Assembly (NCBI GenBank): GCA_965208785.1
Contig: OZ242356.1
Coordinates: 114,202-178,201, forward strand
Source of the DNA: Acidimicrobiales bacterium
GTDB taxonomy: Bacteria; Actinomycetota; Acidimicrobiia; Acidimicrobiales; Bin134
Length of the DNA: 64,000 nucleotides
Direction of reading: 5' to 3'
The notes beneath the pieces were generated by a model. It had not been told where the DNA came from. It ran no database searches and was given only the letters and a program-made list of their open reading frames with translations. Each line of letters begins with the position of its first letter. Position 1 is the stretch's first letter. This document shows, one piece after another, positions 7,305-42,095 of this stretch. Made by a program: the position numbers and the translations under genes.

Positions 7305-7327
7305 GAGAAACCTCCCGTCGCAAACGG

Positions 7328-8320: not shown

Positions 8321-8399
8321 CGCCACACAATACGGCACAAGATAGGGTGGATCGGAAGGGCTCGCCCGAGTCGCCCGGAGTCTTCCGCGAGGAGCTTCC

Positions 8400-15907: not shown

Positions 15908-16365
15908 CAGCCTGTGCCCCAGCTATAGGTCTGCTTGACGAGGCGCAGGTAGTTCAGCGTCTCCAAGGCAACCACTCCGGGGATGGCCCGGATGCGGCCG
16001 TTGACCACCGACATGAAAGCGTCGCTGTCGGGGCACACGATCTCGGCGATGATGTCGAACCGCCCGGCCACGATGATCACGTACTCGGCCTCATCGATCT
16101 CGCCGATGGCGTCGGCCACGCTCCGGGCGTCTTCCGACACGGTGACCCCCACCAGGGCCTGGTAGCCCAAGCCCAGCGCCACCGGATCGGTAACCGCCAC
16201 CACCTGGATGACCCCCCGCTCGATCAGCCGGTTGACCCGCTGGCGGGTGGCCGCCTGCGACAGCCCGACCAGCGGCGCGATCTGGGCGTGGGGCAGCCGG
16301 CCGTCCACTTGCAGCTCGCGGATGATGGCCTTGTCGGTCTCATCGAGGTCGAACACCGCGGTCAT
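15907..16365 (-). CDS. Lrp/AsnC family transcriptional regulator
   Basis: 152 aa with an HTH (DKAIIRELQVDGRLPHAQIAPLVGLSQAATRQRV) and a RAM-like domain. TGATG overlap with potA. Confidence 0.9.
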   Translation of the reverse strand: MTAVFDLDETDKAIIRELQVDGRLPHAQIAPLVGLSQAATRQRVNRLIERGVIQVVAVTDPVALGLGYQALVGVTVSEDARSVADAIGEIDEAEYVIIVAGRFDIIAEIVCPDSDAFMSVVNGRIRAIPGVVALETLNYLRLVKQTYSWGTG

Positions 16366-16380
16366 CGGTCCACCTGCCTC

Positions 16381-17739: not shown

Positions 17740-17770
17740 CGAGGGCGCCCCCCTGCTTCGATTAGCGATC

Positions 17771-17840
17771 ACCGATTTAACACCACAAACCGGCCTTGTG
17801 CAACCAAATCGGTTGTCTCAGATAACTCGACAACCGGTTT
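17771..17840. promoter_or_regulatory. cluster of dyad symmetries in the divergent transaminase/ALDH control region
   Basis: ACCGATTT 17771-78 / AAATCGGT 17806-13. AAACCGG 17787-93 / CCGGTTT 17834-40. CACAA-N7-TTGTG 17784-17800. CAACC-N5-GGTTG 17801-17815. Confidence 0.35.
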
Positions 17841-17921
17841 TTGCTCGAACAGGGGCTTGATTGTGCGGGTTTGGTGCTGCAATATGAGCAATGCAACAAC
17901 GAGAGCGGGGGTAGCACGACC

Positions 17922-19343
17922 ATGCTGACGGACAACTACATCAACGGGAGATTCCAGCCGGCCATTGAGGGGGCGACCGACGAGGTGGTGAATCCAGCCA
18001 CCGGGAAGGTGATCGGCGAGGTGGCGTCCAGCTCGGCGGCTGATGTGGACGCCGCGGTCCAAGCCGCGGCCGCCGCCTTCCCCGAGTGGTCGGCCAAAAC
18101 CCCCCGGGAGCGCAGCGAGATCCTCCACCAGGTGGCCGACATCGTGGAGGAGAACGTGGCCGAGCTGTCCGAGCTCGAGTGCGAGAACGTGGGCAAGCCG
18201 GTTTCGATCATCGAATTCGAAATGGACCAACTGTGCGACAACTGGCGGTTCTTCGCCTCCGCCGGGCGCTTCCTCGACGGCAAGGCCGCCGGCGAGTATC
18301 TCGAGGGCTACACCTCGATGGTGCGCCGCGACCCCATCGGGGTGGTGGGCTCCATCGCCCCTTGGAACTACCCGCTGTTCATGGCCACGTGGAAGCTCGG
18401 CCCGCCGCTGGCGGTGGGCAACACGGTGGTGCTGAAACCCTCCGAGCTCACCCCCTACACCACTTTGCGGCTGGCCGAGTTGCTCGCCGACGTGCTTCCC
18501 CCCGGGGTGTTCAACGTGGTGTGCGGCCAGGGCCGAGCCGCCGGCGTGCCGCTGGTGCAGCACCCCGATGTGGCCATGGTGTCGCTCACCGGGTCGGTGG
18601 CCGCCGGAAAGTCGGTGGCCCAGGAGGCGTCGGACTCGCTCAAGCGGGTCCATCTCGAGCTCGGCGGGAAGGCGCCGGTGATCGTGTTCGACGATGCCGA
18701 CATCGAGGCGGTGGTGGCCAATCTGCGCGACAACAGCTTCTACAACACCGGCCAGGACTGCACCGCGCCCTGTCGGGTGATCGCCGGGTCGAGGGTACAC
18801 GACGATTTCGTGGCCCAGCTCACCGACGCCGCCGCCACCGTGGTCACCGGCGACCCTGCCGACGAGGACACCGAGATGGGCCCGCTGGTGTCCGGCGGCC
18901 AACTCGACCGGGTGTCGGGGTACGTCGAGCGGGCGGCCGAAGCCGGCGCGGAGATCACCATCGGGGGCGGCCCGCGCGACAGCGATGGCTACTTCTATCA
19001 GCCCTCGGTGGTGGTCGGGGTAGACCAGGCGTCGGAGATCGTGCAGCGTGAAGTGTTCGGCCCGGTCATCACCGTGCAGGCGGTGCCCGATGAGGAGACC
19101 GCTCTGGCCTGGGCCAACGACTGCGACTACGGGCTGGCCGCCAGCGTGTGGACCAACGACGTGGGCCGGGCCATGCGCATGGCCAAGGGTCTGCGGTTCG
19201 GCACCGTGTGGGTGAACGACCACATCCCGATCATCTCCGAGATGCCCCACGGCGGCTTCAAGCAGTCGGGCTACGGCAAGGACATGTCGCTCTACGCCCT
19301 CGACCACTACACCGAGCTCAAGCACGTCATGGTGAAGCACTGA
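17922..19343 (+). CDS. NAD-dependent aldehyde dehydrogenase (aminobutyraldehyde dehydrogenase-like)
   Basis: Begins MLTDNYINGRF. Contains ELGGKAP and the catalytic Cys region GQDCTAP. ATG 17922 is in frame with ORF 17841..19343. Confidence 0.9.
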   Translation: MLTDNYINGRFQPAIEGATDEVVNPATGKVIGEVASSSAADVDAAVQAAAAAFPEWSAKTPRERSEILHQVADIVEENVAELSELECENVGKPVSIIEFEMDQLCDNWRFFASAGRFLDGKAAGEYLEGYTSMVRRDPIGVVGSIAPWNYPLFMATWKLGPPLAVGNTVVLKPSELTPYTTLRLAELLADVLPPGVFNVVCGQGRAAGVPLVQHPDVAMVSLTGSVAAGKSVAQEASDSLKRVHLELGGKAPVIVFDDADIEAVVANLRDNSFYNTGQDCTAPCRVIAGSRVHDDFVAQLTDAAATVVTGDPADEDTEMGPLVSGGQLDRVSGYVERAAEAGAEITIGGGPRDSDGYFYQPSVVVGVDQASEIVQREVFGPVITVQAVPDEETALAWANDCDYGLAASVWTNDVGRAMRMAKGLRFGTVWVNDHIPIISEMPHGGFKQSGYGKDMSLYALDHYTELKHVMVKH

Positions 19344-19384
19344 GCTCAACGAACTGGTCACCGCAAGATGGTGAAGCACTGAGC
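19329..19384 (+). repeat. 17-nt direct repeat spanning the ALDH stop codon (39-bp period)
   Basis: ATGGTGAAGCACTGAGC at 19329-19345 and again at 19368-19384. Confidence 0.95.
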
Positions 19385-19416
19385 GGCCAAGTCTGGGCAC
19401 CGGTGGGGTTCGACTC

Positions 19417-20796
19417 GTGAGCGACCGCTACCGGGACATTTCGTTTTGGCACGACACCTGCCCGGGCTCGCTTGAGCCCCGTCCTTCGCTCGCCGGTGAT
19501 GCCGATGTCGACGTCGCCATCGTGGGCGGGGGCTACACCGGGCTGTGGACCGCCTACTACCTGCTGTCCATCGACCCGTCGATTCGGGTGATGGTGATCG
19601 AGCGCGACATCGTGGGTTTCGGCGCTTCGGGCCGCAACGGGGGCTGGTGCGTGGGGGAGCTGGCCGCCGGGCCCAGGCGGCATGAGGCAGTGGCCGGCAA
19701 CGATGCCGCCCGTCGGTTTCTCCACGCCCTGCACGATGCGGTCGACGAGGTGGGTCGAGTGGCCGAGCGGGAGGGCTTCGACTGCCAGTACGCCAAGGGC
19801 GGTGCCATCCGCTTGGCCCGCAATCGGGCCCATCTCACCCGCCAGCGGGAGCAAGTCGAGCACTTCCACCGTGCCTACGGGCTGACCGACCACGACATGC
19901 GGATGCTCGGTGCCGATGAGGCCCGCACCCACTTGGCCGCCACCAGGGTGGTGGGCGGCATGTTCTTCGCCCACACCGCGGCCCTCCACCCGGCCCGGCT
20001 GGTTCGGGGGCTCGGCGATGTAGTTGAGCGCATGGGCGGCAAGATCGTCGAGGGCACGGCCGCCACCGCCATCGAGCCGGGCGCAGTTGCCACCGACCGG
20101 GGAGTTGTCAAGGCCGAGATCGTGGTGCGAGCCCTAGAGGGCTATACCGGCACGCTGGAGGGGAACCGCCGGACATTGGCCCCGCTGTATTCGCTGATGG
20201 TGGCCACCGAGCCCATCGACGACACGCTCTGGGATGAGATCGGATTGAGCCACCGGCAGACGTTCACCGACGACCGCTTCATGGTCATCTACGGGCAGCG
20301 AACGGCCGATGGTCGGATTGCGTTCGGCGGACGGGGAGCCCCCTACAACTTCGGCTCGCGGATCGCCAGCTCGGTGGAGCAGAGATCGCGCACCCACGAA
20401 CGAATCGCCGAAACCCTGGTCGAATTGCTGCCCATGCTCTCTGATGTTGCCTTCACCCACCGCTGGGGCGGTGTGCTCGGCGTACCCCGCGACTGGTTTC
20501 CTTCAGTGGGCTTGGATCGAGGCCGGGGCATGGCCTGGGGCGGCGGCTACGTCGGCGAGGGGGTGGCCGCTGCCAACCTGGCCGGCCGAACCCTGGCCGA
20601 GCTGATCGCCGAGGCCGACTCGCCCCGCATCGACCTTCCCTGGGTGGGACACCGGTCGCGGCGATGGGCGCCCGAGCCGCTCCGGTGGCTGGGCATCAAC
20701 GGGGCGTTGAGGATCATGGGCATCGCCGACCGTTCGGAGGCGATTACCGGCAGGACTTCCCGCCTCGCCCGGATGATGCAGCGGATGCTGAGCTAG
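19417..20796 (+). CDS. FAD-dependent oxidoreductase (DadA/PuuB-like amine oxidase)
   Basis: Dinucleotide-binding motif DVAIVGGGYTGL. 459 aa. Confidence 0.85.
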   Translation: MSDRYRDISFWHDTCPGSLEPRPSLAGDADVDVAIVGGGYTGLWTAYYLLSIDPSIRVMVIERDIVGFGASGRNGGWCVGELAAGPRRHEAVAGNDAARRFLHALHDAVDEVGRVAEREGFDCQYAKGGAIRLARNRAHLTRQREQVEHFHRAYGLTDHDMRMLGADEARTHLAATRVVGGMFFAHTAALHPARLVRGLGDVVERMGGKIVEGTAATAIEPGAVATDRGVVKAEIVVRALEGYTGTLEGNRRTLAPLYSLMVATEPIDDTLWDEIGLSHRQTFTDDRFMVIYGQRTADGRIAFGGRGAPYNFGSRIASSVEQRSRTHERIAETLVELLPMLSDVAFTHRWGGVLGVPRDWFPSVGLDRGRGMAWGGGYVGEGVAAANLAGRTLAELIAEADSPRIDLPWVGHRSRRWAPEPLRWLGINGALRIMGIADRSEAITGRTSRLARMMQRMLS

Positions 20797-21587
20797 TCGC
20801 CGACGATATCGAGGGAATACTCGTTGGCCACCTCTGGTTCGGGGGCGCACAACAAGAGCGACTCGATGCCGAACGTGGGAGCGGCAAACAGTGCGGCGAG
20901 GCAGGAGGCCAGGCCGTGGGCAACCTCGCTGGCATGCATGAGCCCGGTGCGGAACCCTTGGCGCTGCCAGTGGGGAATGACGGCCTCAAAGTCTTCGCGG
21001 GTGAACGAATGGGCGAACTCGGAGGGCTCGGTGGGGCCCAAGATAACGGTGACAAACCGGCGGTTGCCCAGCAGCTCGGTTCGCCATCCGTCCATGGTGG
21101 CCTCCAGGGCCCGCTTGGAGGCGGCGTAGGGCACCAGCGAGTGACGGGGCATCGACGAGGCGTTCGACGACACCGCAACCACCACCGCATCTTCGCTGAG
21201 ATGGGGAAGGGCGGCTTTGATGACCAGGTTCGGCCCATAGGTGTTGACCCCGAACACCGCCTGCCAGTCGTCCGCTGCCATCTCGGCCATCGGCGCCAAG
21301 GGCGACATGCCCGCGGTGTAGACGATGCCGTCGAGCCCGCCGAGCATTTTGGCGGCCTCGCCCACCCCTTGTTCGATGCTGGCCGGGTCCAGCACGTCGA
21401 TCGCCACCACATGGCCGCCTCCGGCCTCGGCCACCGCCTCTTCGAGCGCCTCGCGGCGGCGAGCGGCGAACACCATGTTGGCGCCGTTGCGCTGAAGGGC
21501 AATGGCAGTGGCCCGGCCCAGGCCCGACGAGGCGCCCACCACCAAGATCTTGCGCTCACTCAGGGCTTCCATCTGCTCCTCCTTCAC
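20793..21587 (-). CDS. SDR family oxidoreductase
   Basis: ILVVGASSGLGRA motif. The start may be the second Met (21572). Confidence 0.85.
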   Translation of the reverse strand: MKEEQMEALSERKILVVGASSGLGRATAIALQRNGANMVFAARRREALEEAVAEAGGGHVVAIDVLDPASIEQGVGEAAKMLGGLDGIVYTAGMSPLAPMAEMAADDWQAVFGVNTYGPNLVIKAALPHLSEDAVVVAVSSNASSMPRHSLVPYAASKRALEATMDGWRTELLGNRRFVTVILGPTEPSEFAHSFTREDFEAVIPHWQRQGFRTGLMHASEVAHGLASCLAALFAAPTFGIESLLLCAPEPEVANEYSLDIVGD

Positions 21588-22362
21588 CTAGGGCGCCGGT
21601 CAGCCAATCTTGCCAAAGGGGTCCGTCCCGCTCTGCGGCCTCAGCTCCGTCGGCCCCGTAAAGGTACAGCCACACCGACGCCCTGGCGTGATCGCCGAAA
21701 GACTCCACCGCCACGAATGCGGTGCCGGGCGCGGGCTCGTCGAGCAGCAGGGCGATCCGGTGCGGTCCGGCTTCTGCCACCGTGCCGGCCAGCGGGGGAG
21801 CATCAGGCGAGTTGGCTTCGATCCGCTCGCCCACCCCCGGGGTCGACGAGATGCCCAGCGCGGTTGTGAGCCCGGCCCACTGCTCATCGCGTGAGCCTGC
21901 TCCCATGGCGGTGGGCAGCACCGAGACGGCTGTCTGGCCTCCGAAGTGCTCCAAGTGCAGCCCGAGGTTGGACATGAACAAGCCCCAGCCCTCCACCATG
22001 GCGTCATACTGAGCGTCCCACTCGTTGCCTTCGCCGAAGCCGGTATTCACCAGCCGCACCCTGCACCGGTCTTCGCCTGCGGGCGCCACAGTCCATTCAA
22101 AGGCCAGTCCGTCCACGCCCTCGCCGCCGTCGAAGCAAATCCGCCGTGGCGGCTCCCACACCGCCACCCGCCCGCGAATCTGCATCTCCGGCCCCGGCCC
22201 AAACGAGGCCATGGCCGCTCCACCGGCCCGCTCCTCAACGGTGTGGGGCACATACCACGAGGAGATCCCCGGCCCCGTGGCCACCGCCCGCCACACCTCC
22301 TCAGGCGTCCCCGCTACCTCCACCTCCAACCCAATCGACCGCTCTTCAGCCATGGTGTTCAC
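21556..22362 (-). CDS. SRPBCC (AHSA1-like) domain protein
   Basis: N-terminal half resembles the activator-of-Hsp90-ATPase/SRPBCC fold (EVEVAGTPEEVWRAVATGPGISSWY). Confidence 0.7.
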   Translation of the reverse strand: MNTMAEERSIGLEVEVAGTPEEVWRAVATGPGISSWYVPHTVEERAGGAAMASFGPGPEMQIRGRVAVWEPPRRICFDGGEGVDGLAFEWTVAPAGEDRCRVRLVNTGFGEGNEWDAQYDAMVEGWGLFMSNLGLHLEHFGGQTAVSVLPTAMGAGSRDEQWAGLTTALGISSTPGVGERIEANSPDAPPLAGTVAEAGPHRIALLLDEPAPGTAFVAVESFGDHARASVWLYLYGADGAEAAERDGPLWQDWLTGALGEGGADGSPE

Positions 22363-22473
22363 ACTAGTGGGTGTCGCTGAGCAGGACCGTAGCCAAAATG
22401 CTTTTGTGACTACATTTGGGGACTATATTATTAGCAGTTGATGTGTGCTTCAATCGGAACTACACTAAAATAG

Positions 22474-22809
22474 ATGGAAGTAATTATAATGGAACAAGAA
22501 ATGTCAACCCTCGGCCAGCAAGCTCGCACGGTGGCGGCACGGGAATTCAAGACGCACTGTCTCCAGTTGATTCGCGAGGTCCAGGAAACCGGCCAAGAGA
22601 TCATCATCACCCGCCACAAGAAGCCCGTCGCCCGGCTCGCCCCCGCCCAAAGGGAGTTCATCCCCTTGAGCGGAATAGACAAGGGGCGGCTCAAGATCTA
22701 TGGCGACATCGTGTCATCAGTGTGGGACGACGAGTCATTCGACATGGAGGACAATCCCGACAAGGTCCTCGATCCCGTTGCCTGGTACGAACGTCATGAT
22801 AACGGTTGA
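22474..22809 (+). CDS. Phd/YefM-type antitoxin
   Basis: Contains AAREFKTHCLQLIREVQETGQEIIITRHKKPVARL. Start ambiguous (22474, 22489 or 22501). Preceded by an AT-rich promoter patch. Confidence 0.8.
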   Translation: MEVIIMEQEMSTLGQQARTVAAREFKTHCLQLIREVQETGQEIIITRHKKPVARLAPAQREFIPLSGIDKGRLKIYGDIVSSVWDDESFDMEDNPDKVLDPVAWYERHDNG

Positions 22810-23212
22810 CACTCACACATTGATTTGGCTGAGGTGTTCGGACGACCGGGTAGGCCGGCGCACCGAAGCCTTGCTGATCGAAGCCCAGTTTGAAGGAGAG
22901 CTAGCGGCCTCTGCCGCAGTGTTCACCGAGGCCACTCGATTGCATCTGAACGGAAGAGTCGACCTGGGAATGCCGCCGAGGGCGTGGGCGGACACCTGTA
23001 CGGACAATGGCCTCCGGATCATCCCCGTCTCCGCCCGCATCGCCATCGAGTCGTCGATGCTGGGCACCTCGGGATTTCACGGCGACCCCTTGGACCGCCT
23101 CATCGCCGCTACGGCCGTCGTCGGAGGCCACAGCCTGGTAACCGCCGACCGCCAGATCGCCCAATGGGCCGAGCGCACCCGCCTCCTGAGCGTCATCGAC
23201 CCCGCCCCCTAG
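22796..23212 (+). CDS. vapC: PIN-domain toxin
   Basis: Begins MITVDTHTLIW and contains ...HGDPLDRLIAATA.... ATG 22796 overlaps the antitoxin 3' end by 14 nt. Confidence 0.8.
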   Translation: MITVDTHTLIWLRCSDDRVGRRTEALLIEAQFEGELAASAAVFTEATRLHLNGRVDLGMPPRAWADTCTDNGLRIIPVSARIAIESSMLGTSGFHGDPLDRLIAATAVVGGHSLVTADRQIAQWAERTRLLSVIDPAP

Positions 23213-23361
23213 TGGTGTGTCTTGGGTTTAGGGCCGTGGAGGGAGGAGTCCTGGGATACGAGAGCCGGGTGTCGGGCCTGGTCGCGGGCCTGTGAATTCC
23301 CGGCGGCCAGGAGGTGCTGTTTGCGCTCCGACTCGAACGTGCCGATGTACTTGGTCGGCAC

Positions 23362-25566
23362 TCAGTTGAACACATCGCGGCAGTGAGTCCTGACCGCTTG
23401 GTCTCGGTTGAACTGTCTGGCCAGCGCATTTTGGCAGGCGGCGGACCGGCAGGTTTCTAGGCGCTCCAGCTCTTGGCGGATCGGGGTCCACCCCGACCAC
23501 AGCGCCTCTTGGGCCTGGGCCTCGGCGACGGTGAACGGCTCGGCGGTGTTCCACGGCGCGTCGGGCAGTGTCCACCCCAGCGCAACGAGCACCCGCGCCC
23601 AGTTGCCGGCGTAGCCGGGCCGGTTCTTGTTGTTGTCGTGGTATCGCTTCACGGTCCCGGCGATGTTGCCGCGGGCGGTGCAGACTTGGGGTGTCGGCTG
23701 GTTTCGGGAGTAGTCGGTGACGGGGTCGGCCCGCTCCGGCCACGGCGTCGGGGCCGGGGTCGGCTCGGGGTCCGGCTCCGGCGGGGGGGCGGGCATGGTG
23801 ATCTGAAGCGACGGGCCTTGATCGCCGTGGCCGCTGCCCAAATGGTGGGTGACGGTCCACGAGCCGGGGGCGTTGAACCGCGGGTAGCCGTCGTCGTGGT
23901 AGCGGTACACCTCGAAGGTCTTGGGCTGGTTCCAGTCCGAAGAGTTGAACGAAGTCCAAGCGGCCTGGTGGTTGTGGCCCGACGGCGCCCGCCTCTGGTC
24001 GCGGCACCGCCACAAGCACACGCCCAGCGCCCTCTGCGCGTTGGCCGAAGCGGGCGGGAGCGAAACCCGCGCGTATACCGACACCGGCCCGCCAGGATCG
24101 CGCGAGAGCCTCACGGTGTAGGAGACGGCATCGCCCTCGAACAGCGTCGCGGACGACTCAGAGACCACGATGGCCCGGCTTATGTCGTTGTCGCGCACCC
24201 GCACCGTGGCCGACCCCGCGCTCTGAGACACCCGGTAATCGTCGCCCGGCAACACCTCCAGAGTCACCGAGCCGTCAGGCTCCCACACGTCATCATCAAC
24301 GATGGACACGCCAGCCCACCCCGCAGACGAGAAGGTCCGCCGAACGCCTACTTGGCTGGCGGCTATGAAGTCGCCGCTTTGGCTCCATTGGTATCTGATA
24401 GGCCCGGTGAACCCTGAGGGGCGCTGCAAGTGAACAATGACGCTCTGCCCCTCGGTTTTCTGCTCGTTGCCTGCAAGCAGTCTCACCCCGACCACGGGCC
24501 GGTCATCGACTTCGACTCGGGGTGCCACGACCACGGGCACGCTGAGCCGCCCCCTGGTCGATCCGCTGTCGGACATCGCGACTCTCCCCGCGGCCGACGG
24601 GGCGCCGACGCTGAACGTGAGCGCCGTCGCCTGCTGGGTGACGTTGTTGTCGCCGTCGCGCCGCTCGCGCACCGCCCCCAAAAGCCAGTGCTGCGCGTAC
24701 AGCCTCGCGTTCTGGTGGCCGCTGCCGGCAAGGCTCACGCCGCCCGACAGGCTGAGCCGCGTCCACTGAGGCCCGTCGGCGGTGAACGTCAAAGTGAACT
24801 CGCCGCCCTCGGTCACCATCGGGACACAAGCGTTCCGCCCCGCATACGGGGCGTGCTGCTGGTGGTTGGCAGCCGGGCCGACATAGCGCACCGTGTACGC
24901 CACGCCGTCGCGGCGGGAGCCGGTGAAGGTCAGCGCCCGCTCGCCGCTGCAATCCACAAGCCCCGGAGTCCCGCCCACCACCGGCGTGCCCGCTTTGCTG
25001 ACACCGACAGCCCTGAACTTCAGCGTCGCCGAAGGGTTGCTGTTCCAAGTGGAAGCGGTGACGGAGTAGGTTCTGAAATAAGTGCCGTCGGTGATGCTCC
25101 AGCCGGGCAGGCCCCCGGAGTCCTCGCCGCCCGAAGTCGTGGCGCGAATACCCGCCGTAGCCCTGTTAGCGCCCACGTCGATCACCAGGAAATAGCTGGT
25201 GGTCGCCGCCAGGTCGATGCCGGTGCTCGTGAACGTGAGCACCTGGTCGGAGTTGGAGACGGGGAAGCTGGAGGGGTTGGCCAGGGTGCCCAGCGAGCCG
25301 CCCGGAAACCCGCCCGACGACGAGTGGATGCTGGCGGTCAGATCCGAACTTGAGAGGTCGTTAGTGATATCGGAGAACTCCACTTCGACGCTGCGGAGGC
25401 TGTAGCCCGCGCTGTTGGCGCCGGTCGTGAACCCCTGGGCGTAGTCATTGCCCAAAGACGCGCTGGGTCCGTCTGACTGGCCCAAATTGCCGGTGAAGGT
25501 CAGCGCCGACTGCGCCAAAAGCGGCGACGCCGCCCCCAAACCGGCCGCGGCCACAGCCACAACCAC
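23362..25566 (-). CDS. large secreted protein of unknown family (Calx-beta-like segments)
   Basis: 734-aa ORF with a hydrophobic N-terminus (...AVAAAGLGAASPLLAQS). Contains VSIVDDD and VRVRDND motifs, a Pro-rich linker and a Cys-containing C-terminal domain. The true start likely depends on poly-G tract length (GTG 25636 with 17 or 20 G). Confidence 0.75.
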   Translation of the reverse strand: MVVAVAAAGLGAASPLLAQSALTFTGNLGQSDGPSASLGNDYAQGFTTGANSAGYSLRSVEVEFSDITNDLSSSDLTASIHSSSGGFPGGSLGTLANPSSFPVSNSDQVLTFTSTGIDLAATTSYFLVIDVGANRATAGIRATTSGGEDSGGLPGWSITDGTYFRTYSVTASTWNSNPSATLKFRAVGVSKAGTPVVGGTPGLVDCSGERALTFTGSRRDGVAYTVRYVGPAANHQQHAPYAGRNACVPMVTEGGEFTLTFTADGPQWTRLSLSGGVSLAGSGHQNARLYAQHWLLGAVRERRDGDNNVTQQATALTFSVGAPSAAGRVAMSDSGSTRGRLSVPVVVAPRVEVDDRPVVGVRLLAGNEQKTEGQSVIVHLQRPSGFTGPIRYQWSQSGDFIAASQVGVRRTFSSAGWAGVSIVDDDVWEPDGSVTLEVLPGDDYRVSQSAGSATVRVRDNDISRAIVVSESSATLFEGDAVSYTVRLSRDPGGPVSVYARVSLPPASANAQRALGVCLWRCRDQRRAPSGHNHQAAWTSFNSSDWNQPKTFEVYRYHDDGYPRFNAPGSWTVTHHLGSGHGDQGPSLQITMPAPPPEPDPEPTPAPTPWPERADPVTDYSRNQPTPQVCTARGNIAGTVKRYHDNNKNRPGYAGNWARVLVALGWTLPDAPWNTAEPFTVAEAQAQEALWSGWTPIRQELERLETCRSAACQNALARQFNRDQAVRTHCRDVFN

Positions 25567-25613
25567 CAGCGCGACGAAAACAGACCTGAGCCCTCGCCTG
25601 CCCCTAACTAGGT

Positions 25614-25631
25614 GGGGGGGGGGGGGGGGGG
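25614..25631. repeat. homopolymer G18 (C18 on the coding strand)
   Basis: Counted directly: 7+10+1 G. Lies between GTG 25636 and the signal-peptide codons of gene 23362..25566. Confidence 0.95.
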
Positions 25632-26066
25632 TTCACAGCACACACCAGCACAGACCGCGCTGCGCCCACCGCGTCCGAGCCCGCCCCCGCGGAAACCCCG
25701 CCCATGCCCACGCCTGTTCCTGCCGTCATTGCTTGCTCCCGTCTCGCGCACCAAGCGCGCACCAACCTGCGCGCATGCTACCACTCCGCGAGCAACACCC
25801 ATTAACCCAAGCCCCCACCCCTGCCCCCGCAAGCCCGCGACCGAGCCGGCGGCGAGGACGCCGCGGCCGGCCGCAGCGGTTCGCGGGCGAGGCCACCGCC
25901 GACGTGCTGACGGGTGAATCTGTCACCGAGTCCCAGTAGCGTCGTCACCGGTCGCGGCTCCGTACCAAGCCGTCCAAGCATCCACCACCGGGCGAGGTGC
26001 GACATGGGATCATTCCCAAGGGAGGCCGATCGCAGGCTCCCGTTCAGCATCGGCGAAGGAGGACTT

Positions 26067-27089
26067 GTGTCTGCTGCCAGAGATGACAGCCAACTCTGGT
26101 CGGTACACAGGGGCGACGCGCTCGACGCCTATGCCGTGTGGCCATCCCCCTCGGCCATAATTTCGGATGGCGCATACGGGGTGGGGGGATTCCCCGGCGA
26201 TCCGCGGACGCCAGAAGATCTGGCCGAATGGTATGCACCCCATGTAGAGGCTTGGTCCAAGCACTCACTGCCATCTTCGACGCTGTGGTTTTGGAATACT
26301 GAGATCGGCTGGGCCACAGTTCATCCAGTCTTGGCTGAATTCGGCTGGGACTATGTTCAAACGATCGTGTGGGACAAGGGCATCGGGCACATCGCAGGCA
26401 ATGTGAATGGGGACACCATCCGCCGCTTTCCGGTGGTAACCGAGGTTTGCGTGCTCTATCGGCGTCGTTTGGAATTCCCGACGCGAGATGGCGTGATGAC
26501 GGCTCGGCAGTGGCTGCGGTATGAGTGGCAGCGGGCGGGTTTGCCCCTTCATCGGGCAAATGAGGCGTGTGGGGTGGCGAACGCCGCCACACGCAAGTAC
26601 CTCACCCAAGACTGGCTCTGGTATTTTCCACCACCTGACATGATGGAACGCCTGGTGTGCTACGCCAACGAGCATGGTATTGCGGCTGGTGCCCCCTATT
26701 ACTCCCTAGACGGTGTCGCGCCGGTCACGGCAGGGGAGTGGGCTGGGATGCGAGACCAGTGGAATCACACGCATGGCCTCACAAACGTGTGGTCAGCACC
26801 GCCGTTGAACGGGCAGGAGCGCTACAAGGGCAACGGGGTTCGCTCGGCGCCGCGCGTGTACAAGCCTGGTCGCAACGCCGCTGTCCACCTCAATCAGAAG
26901 CCACTGGAGTTCATGCGCCGAATCATCAAGGCTGCTACCGAGCCAGACGACGCCGTTTGGGAGCCCTTTGGGGGGCTGTGCAGCGCGGTTGTGGCTGCGG
27001 TGGAGGCCGGGCGACGCGGCTACGCAGCGGAGACGGTGGACCACTTTGCCGACCTGGCCATTGAGCGCCTCAGATCTGCTGAATCCTGA
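26067..27089 (+). CDS. beta-class N6/N4 DNA methyltransferase-like protein with atypical motif IV
   Basis: N-terminal IISDGAYG sits where DPPY is expected. NQKPLEFMRRII and the AdoMet motif VWEPFGGLCS are near the C-terminus. GAAGGAGG ribosome-binding site lies 6 nt before GTG 26067. Confidence 0.75.
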   Translation: MSAARDDSQLWSVHRGDALDAYAVWPSPSAIISDGAYGVGGFPGDPRTPEDLAEWYAPHVEAWSKHSLPSSTLWFWNTEIGWATVHPVLAEFGWDYVQTIVWDKGIGHIAGNVNGDTIRRFPVVTEVCVLYRRRLEFPTRDGVMTARQWLRYEWQRAGLPLHRANEACGVANAATRKYLTQDWLWYFPPPDMMERLVCYANEHGIAAGAPYYSLDGVAPVTAGEWAGMRDQWNHTHGLTNVWSAPPLNGQERYKGNGVRSAPRVYKPGRNAAVHLNQKPLEFMRRIIKAATEPDDAVWEPFGGLCSAVVAAVEAGRRGYAAETVDHFADLAIERLRSAES

Positions 27090-27171
27090 CTACGCTCCAA
27101 GCTCGATGAACAACCCGCCGACGCACCAATCTGTACCGCTTTGACCGCCAAGCGCAGACATTTCCTGATGT

Positions 27172-27193
27172 GCTGTTCCGACGCAGGAACAGC
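27172..27193 (+). terminator. hairpin downstream of the methyltransferase gene
   Basis: GCTGTTCC-gacgca-GGAACAGC, a perfect 8-bp stem. No clear U-tract. Confidence 0.35.
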
Positions 27194-27412
27194 TCTGGTG
27201 GCGTCACATTCGCGAAACCGAGCAAGATCCCTCCATTGAATCACCCGCCCACGCTTCTCCATACATGGGCCGGGACAACACCTCCGATTTGCGCCATCGG
27301 AAGGGGGCGAGCCCATTTCGCCTCTCGCATGGGCAGGAGCCGGGCGACGATCTGGAGGGAGAAGAAGCGCTGCGGGCCGGCGCAGTCGATGGTCACCCCC
27401 ACCGTCCGCAAC

Positions 27413-28687
27413 CTAAGCGCCGAGCAGCGCTGCGGGGATGACTCCGATGCCGTCTCGGCGGCGGTAGGCCTCGTTGCCGGTGCTGATGACTGCGGCGTCG
27501 AGCAGGTTGTCGCCGATCCGGTCCGCCAGCCAGCGCAGGTGCCGGACATCGTCGTCGACGACGGCGGCAGCGAGCTTGACTTCCAGCGCGACGACGCTGC
27601 CGTCGCGTCGTTCGACGATCAGGTCCACTTCCTGTTCGCCGCCGCGGGTGCGCAGATGCGAGACGCGCGCTCGCGAGGCTTGCGCGTAGACGCGCACCGA
27701 TTGGGCCACGAGCGACTCGAACAGGTGGCCCAGCAGCGTGCCGTCGCGTTGGGTTGCCTGCGGTGTGGCTATGCCGTCGAGCAGGGCCTCGGCGCCGATG
27801 CCCAAGCTGCTCATGGCGAGCGCGGGGTCGGCGAGATGGTGCTTGGGCGATGCCGCCAAGCGGCGCAGGCGGCTGCGGGTGGGCAGCCAGGCCGGCAGTT
27901 CCTCGACGATCCACATCTGCTCCATGACCCGCCGGTATACGGCGACGGTGGCCATCGACGGCGGGTCGCCGGCGCCGGGTGTGGCTGCGTCGCGTATCGA
28001 GGTGTAGGCGGCGGTCGTTGCGGTTGCGGCGGCGAATGCCTCCAGCCAGCGTCGCAGCGATGCGCGGTCTCGCACGCCGGTGCCGAGCTCGTCGATGTCG
28101 TGCTCCACGACGCGGTCGAGGTAGCTGCCGATCTGGCGTTCCCGTAGGCCCCGGTCGAGTTCGCGGATGGCGGGAAAGCCTGACCGCTCGATCTCCAGCG
28201 CATAATCGGAGAGCTTCATGGCCGAGCGGCCTGCCAATGGGGGCCGGCTGCCGCTCAGCAGTTCGGCCAGGCTGACCGTCGGTTCTGTGATGCCTCGTTC
28301 TGCCAGTGACATCGGGCGCATCCGCAGTGTGACCATACGGCCGGCGCCCGAGTGCGTCGGCCGCGTCGCCGGAGCGGCTGAGCCGGTGAGCAGGAAGCGC
28401 GCCGTGCCAGGATCAGCGTCGACGCGGCGCCGGACCATGTCCCACGAGTCGGGATAGCGCTGCCATTCGTCGATCAGAATCGGGGGGCGGCCAGCGAGCA
28501 GGCGCTCGGGATCGCCCCGCACGACGGCCAGTTGCCTGCCGTCGTCGAGTCGGTGAACCGTGCGAGCGCGCCGCAGGGCCGTCTCAGTCTTGCCCACAGC
28601 ACGCGGCCCCTCGATGACCACCGCAGGCAGGCCGCCGGCGAGCATGTCCAGCTCCGTGTCCACGATGCGAGGCAGATATGCATCCAC
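27413..28687 (-). CDS. AAA ATPase with C-terminal PD-(D/E)xK-like domain (COG1373 / DUF4143 type)
   Basis: Walker A GPRAVGKT, Walker B ILIDEWQ, and C-terminal EVDLIVE...ALEVK. GTG start at 28687. Confidence 0.85.
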   Translation of the reverse strand: MDAYLPRIVDTELDMLAGGLPAVVIEGPRAVGKTETALRRARTVHRLDDGRQLAVVRGDPERLLAGRPPILIDEWQRYPDSWDMVRRRVDADPGTARFLLTGSAAPATRPTHSGAGRMVTLRMRPMSLAERGITEPTVSLAELLSGSRPPLAGRSAMKLSDYALEIERSGFPAIRELDRGLRERQIGSYLDRVVEHDIDELGTGVRDRASLRRWLEAFAAATATTAAYTSIRDAATPGAGDPPSMATVAVYRRVMEQMWIVEELPAWLPTRSRLRRLAASPKHHLADPALAMSSLGIGAEALLDGIATPQATQRDGTLLGHLFESLVAQSVRVYAQASRARVSHLRTRGGEQEVDLIVERRDGSVVALEVKLAAAVVDDDVRHLRWLADRIGDNLLDAAVISTGNEAYRRRDGIGVIPAALLGA

Positions 28688-28690
28688 GCT

Positions 28691-28759
28691 GGCAAGTCTA
28701 CGTATCGGACGGCTCGAACTATGCGAATCGGACGGTCCCAGCTATATGGATCGGACAGT
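28691..28759 (-). repeat. three 23-bp-phased direct repeats directly upstream of the ATPase gene (array A)
   Basis: Core ATCGGAC(G/A)G on the + strand at 28704, 28727 and 28750. The proximal unit carries TAGACT 7 nt before GTG 28687. Confidence 0.9.
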
Positions 28760-28929
28760 ATGGCTGCGAAGCGGGCCGCGTTCTTGGAGGCATCGGATCG
28801 GCTGCGGCAGACGCGGTCGCCCCGACCGAGCATCGCTAGTCCATCCTGACGCCGGCCGACTGCACACGGACACGGTAACGGGCCACCCTGCTTCAACAAC
28901 TCGAGCCGGCGCGGTAGCGGGTGCGCCGG

Positions 28930-29055
28930 TTAGGACCACAGGGTGCTGATGGGAAGGGCCCATAATGCCCGCGGCCCGACTATCGACACGGCGGGAAGCT
29001 CAGCGAGATACTCGGCGATGAGTGGATCTACCAACCGCTTGCGGTAAGTGCTCAC
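28930..29055 (-). pseudogene. 5' fragment of a second DUF4143-type ATPase gene
   Basis: VSTYRKRLVDPLIAEYLAELPAVSIVGPRA aligns with DAYLPRIVDTELDMLAGGLPAVVIEGPRA of the intact gene. Similarity is lost inside Walker A and the frame stops 12 codons later. Confidence 0.7.
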
Positions 29056-29062
29056 CGCACCA

Positions 29063-29131
29063 TACTACCGATTTTCGACACCCAGGAATGCTGATTTTCG
29101 ACACCCTATGATGTCGGTTTTCGACACCCAA
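29063..29131 (-). repeat. three 23-bp-phased direct repeats directly upstream of the ATPase pseudogene (array B)
   Basis: Core TTTTCGACACCC on the + strand at 29072, 29095 and 29118. The proximal unit carries TAGTAT 6 nt before GTG 29055. Confidence 0.9.
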
Positions 29132-29199
29132 GACACCCCGTTGCCGACAGCACATGAGTCGACACCACTGAGCTTCCCATCCCAGATTCCCGCGAAGGC

Positions 29200-29553
29200 T
29201 CAATAAAGGTTCAGACGACCATCCTCGAACCGGGCCGCCATTTCGATCTGAGCACCTCCGACTCCTTCATCGCGCACGCCTCCATCAAGGGTGCCGTCGG
29301 CAAACATGTCGTGAATGATTCCAGCCGCGGTGATTACCACTCGGTTGCCCGCCTGCTCATTGCGCTCGATGTGGCCCTTCAGCGGTCCCCGGTACACCTG
29401 CCACACCCCGCGTAGGTCAGGGGCGCCGTCGGACAGCGGCTCGTCGCAACCGGCCAGCACCAGCGGCGGCCACTCCCGCCACCGACCGGGGGGCGTTCGG
29501 ACAATCGGCAAGTCGACCGCCTTGGTGGTCGCCGACTCGAGATTCGCCGCCAA
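29200..29553 (-). CDS. hypothetical protein
   Basis: 117-aa protein-like ORF (DLRGVWQVYRGPLKGHIERNEQAGNRVVITAAGIIHDMF). No family recognised. Confidence 0.5.
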   Translation of the reverse strand: MAANLESATTKAVDLPIVRTPPGRWREWPPLVLAGCDEPLSDGAPDLRGVWQVYRGPLKGHIERNEQAGNRVVITAAGIIHDMFADGTLDGGVRDEGVGGAQIEMAARFEDGRLNLY

Positions 29554-29803
29554 CTCCGGCAGGAGGTAGTGCTCGCTTCCGACCGGGGTCCGGTCACGGG
29601 TGACGCCGCACCCGAAGCGGTGCCGCCGCCATTGAACCCAGAGCCTTCACCACATCGCCTATTCGCATCGCCGACTCCCCAAATCAATCGCGTTCAACAC
29701 TGGCATTAGATATTGGCATCAATACTGGCCGAGGTGGGCGGCGATCGCGACGGCAACCCCAGTGTCGCTGTCGAAGTGCTCTGGCATCTGTGGGAGAACC
29801 GGG

Positions 29804-30220
29804 TTAGAGGGCTGCGTCGATGCACTGCACCGGGCCGTCCCAGGCCAGCATGTCTCTGTCCAAGGTGAGCAGCGGGCACTCCTGGACAAGCGCGGTGGCC
29901 AGGATGAACCGGTCTGCGGTGTCATTGGTGGCCAGTCCCAGTTCCCCCAGTCGAGCGGCCTGCTCCGCTTCCAGCGACCCAAGAGGCAGGTCTCTGATCC
30001 CCGCGGCTGCCATTCGCAGCCGGAGAAGAGTCACGTTGGCCTCTACGGCCAACCGCCGTTTGGCTTGCAGCAGGGCCAGTTCCCAGTAGGTGATGGCGCT
30101 GACCACTGCCTCGCCTCGTCGAGACGCACGGTCAACGCGTTGGATGGTCTGGGCCCCGAGTTTGCCGTCAGCCAGCCCCCAGCAGAAGCGGAGCACCACG
30201 TTTGTATCGAGTAGCAGCAT
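29804..30220 (-). CDS. vapC: PIN-domain toxin
   Basis: Begins MLLLDTNVVL and contains ...TADRFILATA...LLTLDRD. TGATG overlap with the upstream antitoxin. Confidence 0.85.
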   Translation of the reverse strand: MLLLDTNVVLRFCWGLADGKLGAQTIQRVDRASRRGEAVVSAITYWELALLQAKRRLAVEANVTLLRLRMAAAGIRDLPLGSLEAEQAARLGELGLATNDTADRFILATALVQECPLLTLDRDMLAWDGPVQCIDAAL

Positions 30221-30561
30221 CAGCCATCAGGCTCAGACGGGCCGACAACGAGGCTGGGCTCTTTCTCGTCCCAGCTGGCGAGGATCTCGTTGACCACCTC
30301 CTCATGGCTGGGCGATACGTCCGCTTCGTCGAAATCGAACCCATCGGGTAGCGAGATGATGTCCCGGCAAAAGCCGAATAGCGACCCGGAGTATTCGGCG
30401 AGGGGTGATCGGGGTGGTCGAACCTCAGCCACTGGCCGCCCGTTCTTGGTTATGACGATTTCTTGACCGTCCCTCACCGCCTCCAAGAGCGGGCCGCAAT
30501 TGGCCCGGAACTCGCTGACCGGCACAGTGACCGCTGAAACGGGATCTTTGGCAAGCGCCAT
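30220..30561 (-). CDS. Phd/YefM-type antitoxin
   Basis: Contains VPVSEFRANCGPLLEAVRDGQEIVITKNGRPVAEV. Confidence 0.8.
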   Translation of the reverse strand: MALAKDPVSAVTVPVSEFRANCGPLLEAVRDGQEIVITKNGRPVAEVRPPRSPLAEYSGSLFGFCRDIISLPDGFDFDEADVSPSHEEVVNEILASWDEKEPSLVVGPSEPDG

Positions 30562-30605: not shown

Positions 30606-30668
30606 GAATAGTTTGATGACAGAAGGTTGCACGCCTACTCCCAGTTGGTTCTCGGTACCTTGATACGT

Positions 30669-33392
30669 ATGGCTTCGGCTGACCACCTCGATCAAATCGA
30701 CTCGGCGCTTCGCAACGACATCAGGCGGCTGGGCAACCAGCTCGGCGATGCCCTGGTGCGACAGCACGGCCCTGAGTTGCTGGAGCGCGTCGAACAAGTG
30801 CGGGCCATGGCCCGGGGACTGCGACGCGACGAGGAGTCGGGAGCGGCCCTGGCCGAGGTGCTCGACGATGTGGATGTGGTGGAGGCCATCCGCCTGGTAA
30901 GGGCGTTCACGGTCTACTTTCACCTGGCTAACACCGCCGAGCAGGTCCACCGCATTGAGGATCTCAACGCCGGTGGCCTTGTCGGCAGCCTCCGCTTCGC
31001 TGACACGGTGGCCAAGCTCCGAGACCTTGGCATCGATGCGGCTGAGATTGTGGCCGCCACCCGAGGTGCCGACCTTCGCCCGGTGTTCACCGCTCATCCC
31101 ACCGAGGCTTCCCGCCGGTCGATTCTCGACAAGCTGAACGAGATCGCCGTTCTCATTGAGCGTCGCAGCGAGACCGGCGGCGGGCCGGCCGGCCGGGGCC
31201 GGATCGATCGCCGCGTCGACGAGCTCATCGACGCCATCTGGCAAACCGACGAGCTTCGCCGGGAGCGGCCCGATCCTGTTGACGAGGCCCGCTCCATCCT
31301 CTACTTCCTCACCGAGATCGCCGCTGACGGGGTGCCCGAGCTGTTCGACGACGTCGATGCTGTGTTGCGATCGATCGGGGGCTCGCTGGACGGGCCCCAG
31401 GTGCCGGTGCGGTTCGGGTCGTGGGTGGGCGGCGATCGCGATGGCAACCCCAATGTCACCCCCGAGACAACGCTGGAGGTGCTGGCCTTTCAGCGGGGAC
31501 GGGCGCTGCGCCTGCTGGTGGCCGAGGTGGAAGAGTTGTCGTCGGAACTGTCGGTTAGCACCGCCGTTACCGCCATCACCCCTGAATTGCAGGCCCAGAT
31601 CGAAGCCGACCGCGACGACTTTCCCGACGTGGTGTCCCGATTCAGCAAGTTGAGCGCCGGCGAGCCCTACCGGCAGCGCTGTTCGGTGATTCACCAGCGC
31701 CTGTTGGAAGCCGCCGCCCAGCCTCCCGGACCGAGGGCCTATGGGTCGCCCGCCGACATGGAGGCCGACCTGGCCGCCATGGCCCGCTCGCTCGAAGTCA
31801 ACGGGGGATCGCTGATGGCCAGCGGCCGCTTGGCCCGGGTCCGGCGGATCCTGGCCATGGTCGGATTCCACCTCGCCACCCTCGACATCCGCGAGAACGC
31901 CGCGGCCCACCACGAGGCATTGGCGGAGCTGTTCGCCGAGTTGGGCACCGAATACCTGGCGCTCTCCCGTTCGGACCGCACCGCGCTGTTGGCCGCCGAA
32001 CTGGAAAGCCGCCGGCCCCTGGCCCCTCCCGCGGGGTCGAGCGCCCAGGGCTCTCTGGCTCTGTTCGCGGCCCTGCGAAAAGCCTTCGACCGCCACGGCG
32101 ACGGCGTGATCGAGAGCTACATCGTCTCCATGACCCACGGCGTTGACGACGTGCTGGCCCCCGCGGTGCTGGCCCGCGAGGTCGGCCTGGTGGACATCCC
32201 CGGAGGCGTCGCCCGAATTGGCTTCGTGCCGCTATTCGAGACCATCGACGACCTCCGGGGGATCGGGCCCATGCTCCGGGAGCTGTTGGCCGCACCCGCC
32301 TACCGTCGCCTGGTGCAGCTCAGGGGCAACAGGCAAGAGGTGATGGTCGGCTACTCCGACTCCAACAAGGACGGCGGCATCACCACCTCGCAGTGGGAGA
32401 TCCACAAGGCGCTGCGGGAGATCGCCGAGGTCTCGGCCGAGACCGGAATCAAGGTGGTTGTGTTCCACGGCCGGGGCGGCACCGTGGGGCGAGGGGGCGG
32501 GCCCACCAACGCGGCCATCTTGTCGCAACCAGCCGGGGTGGTGGCCGGAGCGATGAAGATCACCGAGCAGGGCGAGGTGATCGCCGACAAGTACGGCCTG
32601 CCCCGCCTGGCCCAGCGCAACCTGGATCTCGCCCTGTCGGCGGTGCTGGAGGCCACTCTCGCCCACCAGAGCCCCCGTCACGGCCGCGGCGGCATCGATG
32701 CCTGGAACGATGTCATGGAACTCATGTCGACCAGCGCCTATCAGGCGTACCGCAGCTTGCTCGACACCCCCGGCTTTGTGGAGTACTTCCAGGCCTCGAC
32801 CCCCGTAGAAGAGCTGACCGCCATGAACATCGGCTCCCGACCGGCTCATCGTTCGGGATCAAAGGCTGGCATCGACGATCTCCGAGCCATCCCCTGGGTG
32901 TTCGGGTGGACCCAGTCGCGGCAGATCATCCCCGGCTGGTTCGGGGTGGGCACGGCTCTGGCTGCGGTTGACGAGGCCGGCAGCGAAGAACTGCTCCCGG
33001 CCATGTACGAAGGCTGGCAGTTCTTTCGCACGTTTGTCTCCAACGTGGAGATGACTTTGGTCAAGACCGATCTGGCCATTGCCGGGCACTATGTCAATCG
33101 CCTCGTCGCCCCTGAACTCCATCACTTCTTCAACACAATTGTTGAAGAGCACGATCTCACCGTCGCCCACATCGCCAAGCTGACCGGCGGCGAACTGCTC
33201 GGCGATCTTCCGGTGCTCAAGCGGACCTTGGCCGTTCGTGATGCCTACCTCGACCCCATAAGCGTGCTGCAAGCAGAACTGCTGGCCCGTTCGCGGGCCA
33301 AACTGGGCTTGCAAGATGACAGCCGTCGCATTCAGCGGGCCCTCCTGCTGACCGTGAATGGAGTCGCCGCCGGCATGCGCAACACCGGCTGA
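30669..33392 (+). CDS. ppc: phosphoenolpyruvate carboxylase
   Basis: VGYSDSNKDGG signature, C-terminal ...MRNTG. About 907 aa from MASADHLDQ. Confidence 0.95.
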   Translation: MASADHLDQIDSALRNDIRRLGNQLGDALVRQHGPELLERVEQVRAMARGLRRDEESGAALAEVLDDVDVVEAIRLVRAFTVYFHLANTAEQVHRIEDLNAGGLVGSLRFADTVAKLRDLGIDAAEIVAATRGADLRPVFTAHPTEASRRSILDKLNEIAVLIERRSETGGGPAGRGRIDRRVDELIDAIWQTDELRRERPDPVDEARSILYFLTEIAADGVPELFDDVDAVLRSIGGSLDGPQVPVRFGSWVGGDRDGNPNVTPETTLEVLAFQRGRALRLLVAEVEELSSELSVSTAVTAITPELQAQIEADRDDFPDVVSRFSKLSAGEPYRQRCSVIHQRLLEAAAQPPGPRAYGSPADMEADLAAMARSLEVNGGSLMASGRLARVRRILAMVGFHLATLDIRENAAAHHEALAELFAELGTEYLALSRSDRTALLAAELESRRPLAPPAGSSAQGSLALFAALRKAFDRHGDGVIESYIVSMTHGVDDVLAPAVLAREVGLVDIPGGVARIGFVPLFETIDDLRGIGPMLRELLAAPAYRRLVQLRGNRQEVMVGYSDSNKDGGITTSQWEIHKALREIAEVSAETGIKVVVFHGRGGTVGRGGGPTNAAILSQPAGVVAGAMKITEQGEVIADKYGLPRLAQRNLDLALSAVLEATLAHQSPRHGRGGIDAWNDVMELMSTSAYQAYRSLLDTPGFVEYFQASTPVEELTAMNIGSRPAHRSGSKAGIDDLRAIPWVFGWTQSRQIIPGWFGVGTALAAVDEAGSEELLPAMYEGWQFFRTFVSNVEMTLVKTDLAIAGHYVNRLVAPELHHFFNTIVEEHDLTVAHIAKLTGGELLGDLPVLKRTLAVRDAYLDPISVLQAELLARSRAKLGLQDDSRRIQRALLLTVNGVAAGMRNTG

Positions 33393-42021: not shown

Positions 42022-42095
<74 letters not shown>

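Follow-up and report, generated by a model that had tools for sequence, protein, structure and literature searches.

Can the number of cytosines in a single homopolymer decide whether a bacterium exports a large surface protein? The question is raised by a locus in a stretch of 64,000 nucleotides from an Acidimicrobiales bacterium (assembly GCA_965208785.1, contig OZ242356.1, positions 114,202 to 178,201), which we call the window and whose own numbering we use throughout. On its minus strand, an open reading frame (ORF) of 734 amino acids (23362–25566) encodes a predicted secreted protein, and shortly upstream of this ORF lies a run of 18 cytosines (25614–25631). An earlier note on this DNA had read the run as a candidate slipped-strand ON/OFF switch placed between a start codon and a signal peptide. 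From sequence comparison, and with moderate confidence, we interpret the tract as the hypermutable element of a slipped-strand contingency, or phase-variable, locus.

The tract and its reading frames

The tract is real in the sequence and far beyond chance expectation. Positions 25614–25631 of the plus strand hold exactly 18 G, as the earlier note reported, and the coding strand reads GTGAA-C18-ACCTAGTTAGGGGCAGGCGAGGG. The G+C content of the window is 66%; its next longest G or C runs are a C9 (6941–6949) and two 7-mers, and dinucleotide-preserving shuffles give an expectation of 0.12 G runs of at least 12 nucleotides per window. The hypermutable homopolymers of contingency loci measure about 8 nt or more, a length well exceeded here.

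A signal peptide is encoded directly 3' of the tract, in the gene frame (25513–25605, minus strand). Based on heuristic prediction and homologue alignment, it comprises an n-region (RGRRGLRS), an h-region (VFVALVVVAVAAAGLGAA) and a c-region (SPLLA), with predicted cleavage before QS, and it aligns with the signal peptides of homologues P0002, P0003, P0005 and P0007. Homologues from other organisms begin MGRGLRPVLAAALL... or MTASRRLAKLPLLL... (MGRGLRPV...) at the position where the window protein reads RGRRGLRSVFVALVV (RGRRGLRSV). Since the homologues' N-termini start there, the n-region 3' of the tract is coding and an upstream start is required. Internal starts are inadequate: from GTG 25566, which the earlier note had already considered unsuitable, or from GTG 25554, all four arginines and the best hydrophobic core (VFVALVVVAVAA) are lost. 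The database protein for this gene (P0001) begins MAAAGLG, which implies a start at GTG 25554. A Tat-type signal seems unlikely, as the RR of RGRRGLRS misfits the S/T-R-R-x-F-L-K consensus and homologues lack the RR pair.

The upstream start is probably that of a short leader ORF that runs into the tract. At 18 C, the leader (25604–25729, minus strand) begins at ATG 25729, continues to MTAGTGVGMGGVSAGAGSDAVGAARSVLVCAVN-P7-S, with the tract read as proline codons, and stops at TAG 25606–25604. A Shine-Dalgarno (SD)-like GGGAG (25736–25740) lies 6 nt upstream of the ATG and is conserved in two related loci, L001 and L104; in other family loci, the leader starts follow comparable sites (GGGAGG or AAGGAG). 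Conservation of the leader peptide extends to L104 and to the related protein P0161 (MTDAGSATGKASAGADAAGAARSV...), with a 6-nt in-frame indel and mostly third-position changes. This pattern suggests that the leader is probably translated. The earlier note had proposed GTG 25636, adjacent to the tract, as the start codon. This GTG lies in the same frame, 31 codons downstream of ATG 25729, and we consider the SD-led ATG the probable initiation site, because the leader is conserved as coding sequence and the fused alleles P0011 and P0161 begin at the leader ATG. The tract does separate start from signal peptide, as the note proposed, but the likely start is further upstream, and a protein made from it would carry an extension of ~45 aa ahead of the n-region.

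The frames on either side of the tract are closed by stop codons, as the earlier note had seen for the gene frame. At 18 C, the gene frame is shut by TGA 25635–25633, which lies 1 nt 5' of the tract. Immediately beyond the 3' end of the run, the sequence TAG-T-TAG (25604–25610) supplies overlapping stops in both non-gene frames, with TAG 25610–25608 ending the third frame and TAG 25606–25604 the leader frame. Read from the sequence, a proximal cluster of GTG codons (GTGTGTGCTGTG, 25634–25645, minus strand) offers further starts, though without a good SD ahead. Among these, GTGs 25645 and 25636 share the leader frame, which is −1 relative to the gene, and GTG 25636 joins the gene at 17 or 20 C, as the note stated, and also at 14. 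GTG 25641 shares the gene frame but runs into the TGA, and GTG 25643, in the third frame, matches the gene at 16, 19 or 22 C, lengths that are potentially ON as well. Only multiples of three, such as 18, leave the gene without any upstream start. The repeat thus lies between an initiation codon and the functional body of the gene, and its unit is not a multiple of three.

Together, these features allow a simple model of the switch. Ribosomes would begin at ATG 25729, behind its SD, and translate a leader of ~33 codons, entering the poly-C, which would be decoded as poly-proline. The number of cytosines alone sets whether this frame runs on through the signal peptide and the mature protein of 716 aa: at 17 or 20 C, leader and gene form one N-terminally extended ORF (ON). 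At 18 C, no start usable in the gene frame precedes the hydrophobic core, and therefore no exportable protein could be made by standard decoding (OFF). Slipped-strand mispairing at replication would add or remove cytosines at high frequency, and a symbiont population in a sponge would then always mix ON and OFF cells for the surface protein. The OFF state would probably be leaky, through slippage of RNA polymerase and +1 slippage of tRNA-Pro on CCC-C.

Orthologous alleles and the encoded protein

Close relatives of the host carry the same gene with tracts of other lengths. The phosphoenolpyruvate carboxylase of the window (30627–33392) is 90–92% identical to those of Candidatus Poriferisocius sp. 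and Acidimicrobiales bacterium metagenome-assembled genomes (MAGs), and its next relatives come from other sponge-associated Acidimicrobiia, one of them titled marine group Sva0996. Judged by this marker, the host is an Acidimicrobiia symbiont related to Candidatus Poriferisocius, and the earlier note was right to place it among the actinobacteria. The nearest allele is found on a 447-kb metagenome contig (L001), whose DNA is 93–96% identical to window 13278–25860 and which encodes P0011 (794 aa), the second member of the annotated protein's 90%-identity cluster. Here the tract is C22 (10112–10133) with flanks as in the window, and a 13-nt unit of the leader (GCGGGGTTTCCGC, window 25689–25701, minus strand) is tandemly duplicated. 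The net difference is +17 nt, and the leader ATG is therefore in frame with the whole 794-aa ORF, which is open (ON).

A second pair of alleles shows the same contrast. The more distant orthologue P0135, from an Acidimicrobiaceae MAG (L104), has the SD, the ATG and the leader start as in the window, a tract of C14 (2946–2959), and a leader that ends at a TAG right after the tract (unfused). Its 90%-identity cluster-mate from another MAG, P0161, reads MTDAGSATGKASAGADAAGAARPVSVSAAT-PPP-RGRGAVGRRFW... over 795 aa and is fused (ON), with a tract of ~C10 as inferred from the T-PPP-R junction of the protein. Four alleles of one gene thus carry 10, 14, 18 and 22 C, two fused and two unfused, and ON and OFF alleles are present within two pairs of near-identical strains. 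The earlier note had suggested examining the locus in related strains, and this comparison reveals repeat-length polymorphism within conserved flanks, with both states represented among close relatives. We note separately that the four lengths step by exactly 4, which is possibly a coincidence.

The loci stem from separate assemblies, different samples and different records. In these, the tract sits inside long contigs with collinear flanks on both sides, and homology spans it. Because the same tract recurs at other lengths with conserved flanks in independent assemblies, an artefact of poly-G chemistry or of contig joining, which the earlier note had named as a possible undoing of its proposal, is excluded. 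Contig names (ctg..._10x_l, ptg...l) resemble those of long-read metagenome assemblies, with 2–15x coverage for the related contigs. A search of JGI metagenomes with an exact DNA pattern across the tract returned no match, and a protein scan of the genome-contig set for the gene found no relative; either the species representative is without the gene or its genome is absent from that set.

Apart from the tract, the gene body looks maintained and functional, judging by its comparison with L001. Over 2250 nt, no stop or indel separates the two sequences, and the ratio of non-synonymous to synonymous substitution rates (dN/dS) is 0.45 (15.2 synonymous and 19.8 non-synonymous changes). The mature secreted protein (716 aa; 23362–25512, minus strand) consists of an N-terminal beta-sandwich, a Calx-beta-like remainder and a conserved C-terminal domain. 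The remainder resembles Calx-beta-type parts of homologues, which carry Calx-beta domains. A Pfam scan of the frame-restored protein assigned no family, and a sequence search of the PDB found no relative. The N-terminal domain of 175 aa (24988–25512, minus strand) is widespread: at E ≤ 1e-3 it occurs in 2908 cluster representatives, with as many as 16 copies per protein and protein lengths reaching 6614 aa. Its AlphaFold model is a beta-sandwich (pLDDT 76.7, pTM 0.79) that weakly resembles a phage baseplate protein (E 1.4e-4, TM 0.59) as well as modules of the lectin-like or carbohydrate-binding type.

From its sequence and the predicted fold, the product is best described as a secreted or surface adhesin-like protein. 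By analogy with other systems, such an extracellular product is the usual cargo of contingency loci, and phase-variable genes are, like this one, otherwise intact. Sponge-symbiotic Acidimicrobiia are reportedly enriched in Calx-beta, fn3 and cadherin-type proteins (PMC11706023). No LPXTG motif was seen on reading the 734-aa product, and no sortase family was found among the genes called around L001 or in the five neighbouring window ORFs that were scanned.

Repeats in related genes and the genomic neighborhood

Similar tracts recur at the 5' ends of related genes. Eight loci carry a poly-C on the coding strand inside an SD-led leader ORF, with lengths of C9 (L105), C13 (L087 and L103), C14 (L104), C18 (window), C20 (L098), C22 (L001) and C25 (L102). 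Three of these (L098, L102 and L103) form one conserved group with flanks that are ~85% identical and with tracts of 20, 25 and 13 C. Other family members have perfect repeats at the same place, including (GCCGGGTC) in 6 to 30 copies, (GTCCAGCR) x8, (GGTCCAGA) x9, (CGCCCAGC) x4 and (GCCA) x24. Overall, a frame-shifting repeat (C9–C25, 4-mer or 8-mer) lies no more than 250 nt from the signal peptide in 8 of 12 independent gene groups. As background, 586 kb of Acidimicrobiia sequence plus the window contain three such repeats, one of which is the tract studied here.

The relation between leader and main gene differs among these loci. In the window, L001, L104 and L087, the main ORF lacks a start of its own, and therefore only in-frame fusion delivers the signal peptide. 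In L103, L105 and L089, the leader stop overlaps the main start (TCATGA or GTGA), which is the geometry of translational coupling. We tentatively suggest that the window locus is one case of a family-wide leader-repeat expression switch, a "repeat-gated translational coupling or fusion" found in at least two and probably three phyla of uncultured sponge symbionts. Under such a scheme, repeat length would decide whether the leader fuses to the main ORF or stops in overlap with the main start.

Several distant homologues with perfect 8-mer or 4-mer repeats (4–30 copies), located upstream of or at their 5' ends, show further features. These repeats lie at 2586–2822 in L002, 2123–2173 in L097, 1–54 in L003, 2550–2613 in L089, 2675–2709 in L090, 1625–1720 in L091 and 1–74 in L092. 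The L003 protein is annotated as Gemmatimonadetes and the related P0038 as Chloroflexi; the other repeat loci are metagenome contigs without a taxon. A promoter-like TTGACA...TATAAT box abuts the repeat in L090 and L097. The leader ORF of L089, preceded by AAGGAG, extends through the repeat to a TGA overlapping the main ATG. The Gemmatimonadota-type homologue P0004 (L097 2400–2500) has CTG where the start of its orthologues is TTG, and the gene caller places its start within the first domain; the CTG could serve as a non-canonical start, or the copy could be inactivated. P0002, also Gemmatimonadota-type, lies in L002 between inverted IS66-family copies (1–2329 and 5983–8341, with TnpB_IS66 and DDE_Tnp_IS66) in a composite-transposon-like arrangement.

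Long tracts were also seen outside the family. A related Acidimicrobiia MAG (L008, on a MEGAHIT-style k141 contig) has G16 at 5868–5883, 21 nt ahead of the ATG for another secreted protein, a collagen-like one with GPP repeats; here, too, a Phd/PIN toxin-antitoxin pair lies next to the tract. The clade may generally tend to carry long G/C tracts at the 5' ends of genes for secreted proteins. The Acidimicrobiales chromosome OZ224042.1 (L027) carries C16 at 405–420 beside a nucleotidyltransferase-like ORF and a (GCCCAGGAT)x4 repeat at about 250–285. In the window itself, the C9 run at 6941–6949 (plus strand) is G9 on the coding strand of an ORF (5302–7110, minus strand) and encodes a GGGG stretch in an Asp/Gly/Ser-rich N-terminal region. 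Judged from sequence, this ORF resembles a lipoprotein-type solute-binding protein, and its run would be a second, shorter, potentially slippery tract.

The tract gene lies in a variable neighborhood. It is bracketed by two PhdYeFM/PIN toxin-antitoxin pairs (about 29804–30560 and about 22490–23210, mapped from the L001 gene calls), and the L104 orthologue is likewise flanked by PIN and Phd/ParE. A segment of ~3.9 kb (25861–29803), located between a PhdYeFM/PIN pair and the leader region, is missing from L001 at the equivalent place. It contains genes for an N6/N4 DNA methylase (25914–27089, plus strand) and an AAA_14/DUF4143 ATPase (27413–28687, minus strand) and resembles a variable defense-type islet. 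We considered whether the methylase and MTaX1 neighbors of the window and L105 form one linked module and rejected this, as window ORF 27170–28147 has no similarity to the L105 MTaX1. A consensus promoter and terminator scan of window 25400–26000 gave no match, and an Rfam scan of the whole window found only a tRNA (42022–42095).

Alternative readings and biological meaning

Several observations weigh against a phase-variable locus as we describe it. Homopolymers of 14–25 nt are error-prone in every sequencing chemistry, and the count of 18 could be off by one. In three groups lacking a separate main start (the window, L104 and L087), the assembled length is each time the fused length plus one C, which could mean +1 recoding or a systematic miscall. 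An N-terminal extension of ~45 aa before a Sec signal is unusual. The leader peptide is not strictly constrained, as the 13-nt duplication in L001 alters its amino acid sequence. Finally, the main gene has its own start codon in L098, L102, L103 and L105, and the tract therefore cannot act there by simple fusion.

A consensus error of this kind would leave the tract real but the OFF state technical: 18 would be a miscall of a true 17, 19 or 20, and the gene would simply be whole, including a stretch of poly-proline. Indel errors in long-read consensus arise mainly at long homopolymers, and errors occur at G-tracts in Illumina data as well; coverage of the related contigs is low, a change of one nucleotide is enough to restore the frame, and the shared excess of one C at the three unfused loci fits a systematic miscall. 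In a study on Bifidobacterium, database G-tract lengths likewise disagreed with the real population (PMC9187656). We nevertheless think this explanation unlikely, as the differences of 4–12 nt between orthologues (10/14/18/22 and 13/20/25) far exceed consensus errors and come from separate assemblies, samples and records. Even at 17 C, the homopolymer would be intrinsically unstable, and a miscall would alter the state assigned to this allele but leave the kind of element as it is. It would not touch the conclusion that we are dealing with a real and variable tract that gates the reading frame. Next in probability, and likewise unlikely, is constitutive recoding, by which full-length protein would be made through RNA polymerase slippage or a +1 frameshift of tRNA-Pro on CCC-C; in a variant of this idea, poly-proline stalling might boost the frameshift and tie output to EF-P or proline status. 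EF-P and m1G37 have a role at CCC-C, the gene frame is +1 relative to the leader frame in the window, L104 and L087, stops in the 0 frame follow within 2–6 codons of the tract, and all eight tracts are C rather than G on the mRNA-like strand, giving poly-proline. Homopolymers are generally documented as sites of transcriptional slippage and frameshift "correction" (PMC1088944, PMC5009743, PMC8254509). Programmed sites, however, keep their slippery sequence and frame relation among orthologues, whereas the tracts here range from 10 to 25 nt, with fused alleles in P0011 and P0161, and L098 and L102 fall in other frame classes. No stimulatory RNA structure was found, as the folds did not surpass those of shuffled sequences (z +0.06 to +2.8), and chance could account for the three +1 cases (about 0.04–0.11).

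The leader could instead act as a regulatory peptide, with poly-proline serving as a translational attenuator or coupling device and length variation as tolerated noise. The overlapping leader stops and main starts in L103, L105 and L089, the strong SDs and the conserved leader N-termini (e.g., MA[LF]DR..H) are consistent with this. Coupling cannot work in the window, L001, L104 and L087, where no main-ORF start lies near the leader stop, and, the repeat unit not being a multiple of three, each slip moves the leader stop and necessarily alters output. A related candidate, a hairpin in which the C-run pairs with downstream G-rich sequence and sequesters the SD, was rejected, since the minimum-free-energy folds of six loci show no advantage over the same shuffles and leave the tract mostly unpaired; this also counts against leader regulation, which we regard as improbable. 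Decay of a pseudogene, or a neutral, runaway lengthening of the homopolymer in an island gene that the cell can do without, seems the least probable of all. It would fit a gene that lies in a variable region with toxin-antitoxin flanks and a 3.9-kb insertion present in the window and absent from L001, that has no Pfam annotation and that is broken in frame in the window assembly. Several lesions and relaxed constraint would be expected of a pseudogene, but no second disabling mutation occurs in 2.25 kb in the window or L001, the sole frame problem is confined to the tract, and dN/dS is below neutrality. Fused alleles exist in relatives, and the same 5' arrangement in many paralogues and other phyla is not predicted by neutral decay.

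The preferred reading, a phase-variable locus, has counterparts among well-known systems. In Neisseria, pilC has a poly-G in the signal-peptide coding region and opa has CTCTT repeats there, and lic1 of Haemophilus influenzae combines CAAT repeats with alternative start codons. The window locus likewise has a frame-shifting repeat that follows the start codon and precedes the mature part of a surface protein, and starts in different frames would create several ON classes (here GTG 25636/25645 versus GTG 25643). Their hosts, however, are Gram-negative pathogens of low to moderate G+C content, unlike the window host, and their repeats, usually 8–14 in length, are located within the signal-peptide region or immediately ahead of it, with no conserved 30–40-codon leader.

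Closer to the window host is Bifidobacterium breve UCC2003, in which the sortase-dependent pilin genes bbr_0113 and bbr_1889 are reportedly switched by replication slippage at an intragenic G-tract (PMC9187656). The two cases share an actinobacterial host, a 5' G/C homopolymer that splits the Sec-signal part from the rest, annotation as two ORFs in databases, and an ON state that needs a particular tract length. The Bifidobacterium tracts given there are 10–12 nt long and follow the signal peptide, whereas the window tract is 18 nt (10–25 in relatives) and precedes it in an SD-led leader, and the switching proposed here is deduced from strain comparison. The window cargo is also no pilin and comes without LPXTG or a sortase cluster, and the locus would work alike without being a member of that system. 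The earlier note had described slipped-strand switching as rarely reported in actinobacteria; the arrangement fits such switching, but its rarity is qualified by this precedent.

Two further systems share single features. Helicobacter pylori tlpB has a variable G-repeat in its mRNA leader, whose length tunes expression and which is targeted by the small RNA RepG (PMC8295292); that repeat is untranslated and acts by small-RNA pairing, whereas the window run is C, lies in a translated leader and shifts the frame. In Mycobacterium tuberculosis, reversible ON/OFF frameshifts are reported at a 7C tract of glpK (bioRxiv 10.1101/717272), likewise an actinobacterial homopolymeric C tract, but one that is short, sits within the gene for a metabolic enzyme and is tied to drug tolerance, and that does not mark the 5' end of a secreted-protein gene. 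By analogy, the mechanism proposed here would be classical translational phase variation with actinobacterial precedent, to which the locus would add another case.

Nearly all that is known of phase variation comes, to our knowledge, from pathogens in culture and a small number of gut commensals. The Poriferisocius group of Acidimicrobiia is uncultured, and a literature search for phase variation in sponge symbionts yielded nothing relevant. Gene callers truncate genes of this kind, as in P0001, which starts inside the signal peptide, and their products are therefore missed in secretome predictions; the tract lengths that MAG consensus sequences show should also be treated with caution. If the window locus and its relatives do switch, sponge mutualists would keep mixed populations that show or hide large adhesin-like proteins, which would bear on escape from feeding by sponge cells, on phage pressure and on strain-level diversity in MAGs. 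Family-wide use of leader-embedded repeats across phyla is the more novel possibility. If true, the leader-ORF variant would join the known modes of phase variation, and each symbiont genome would have a set of independently switchable surface proteins, a phasome, to set against its host or phages.

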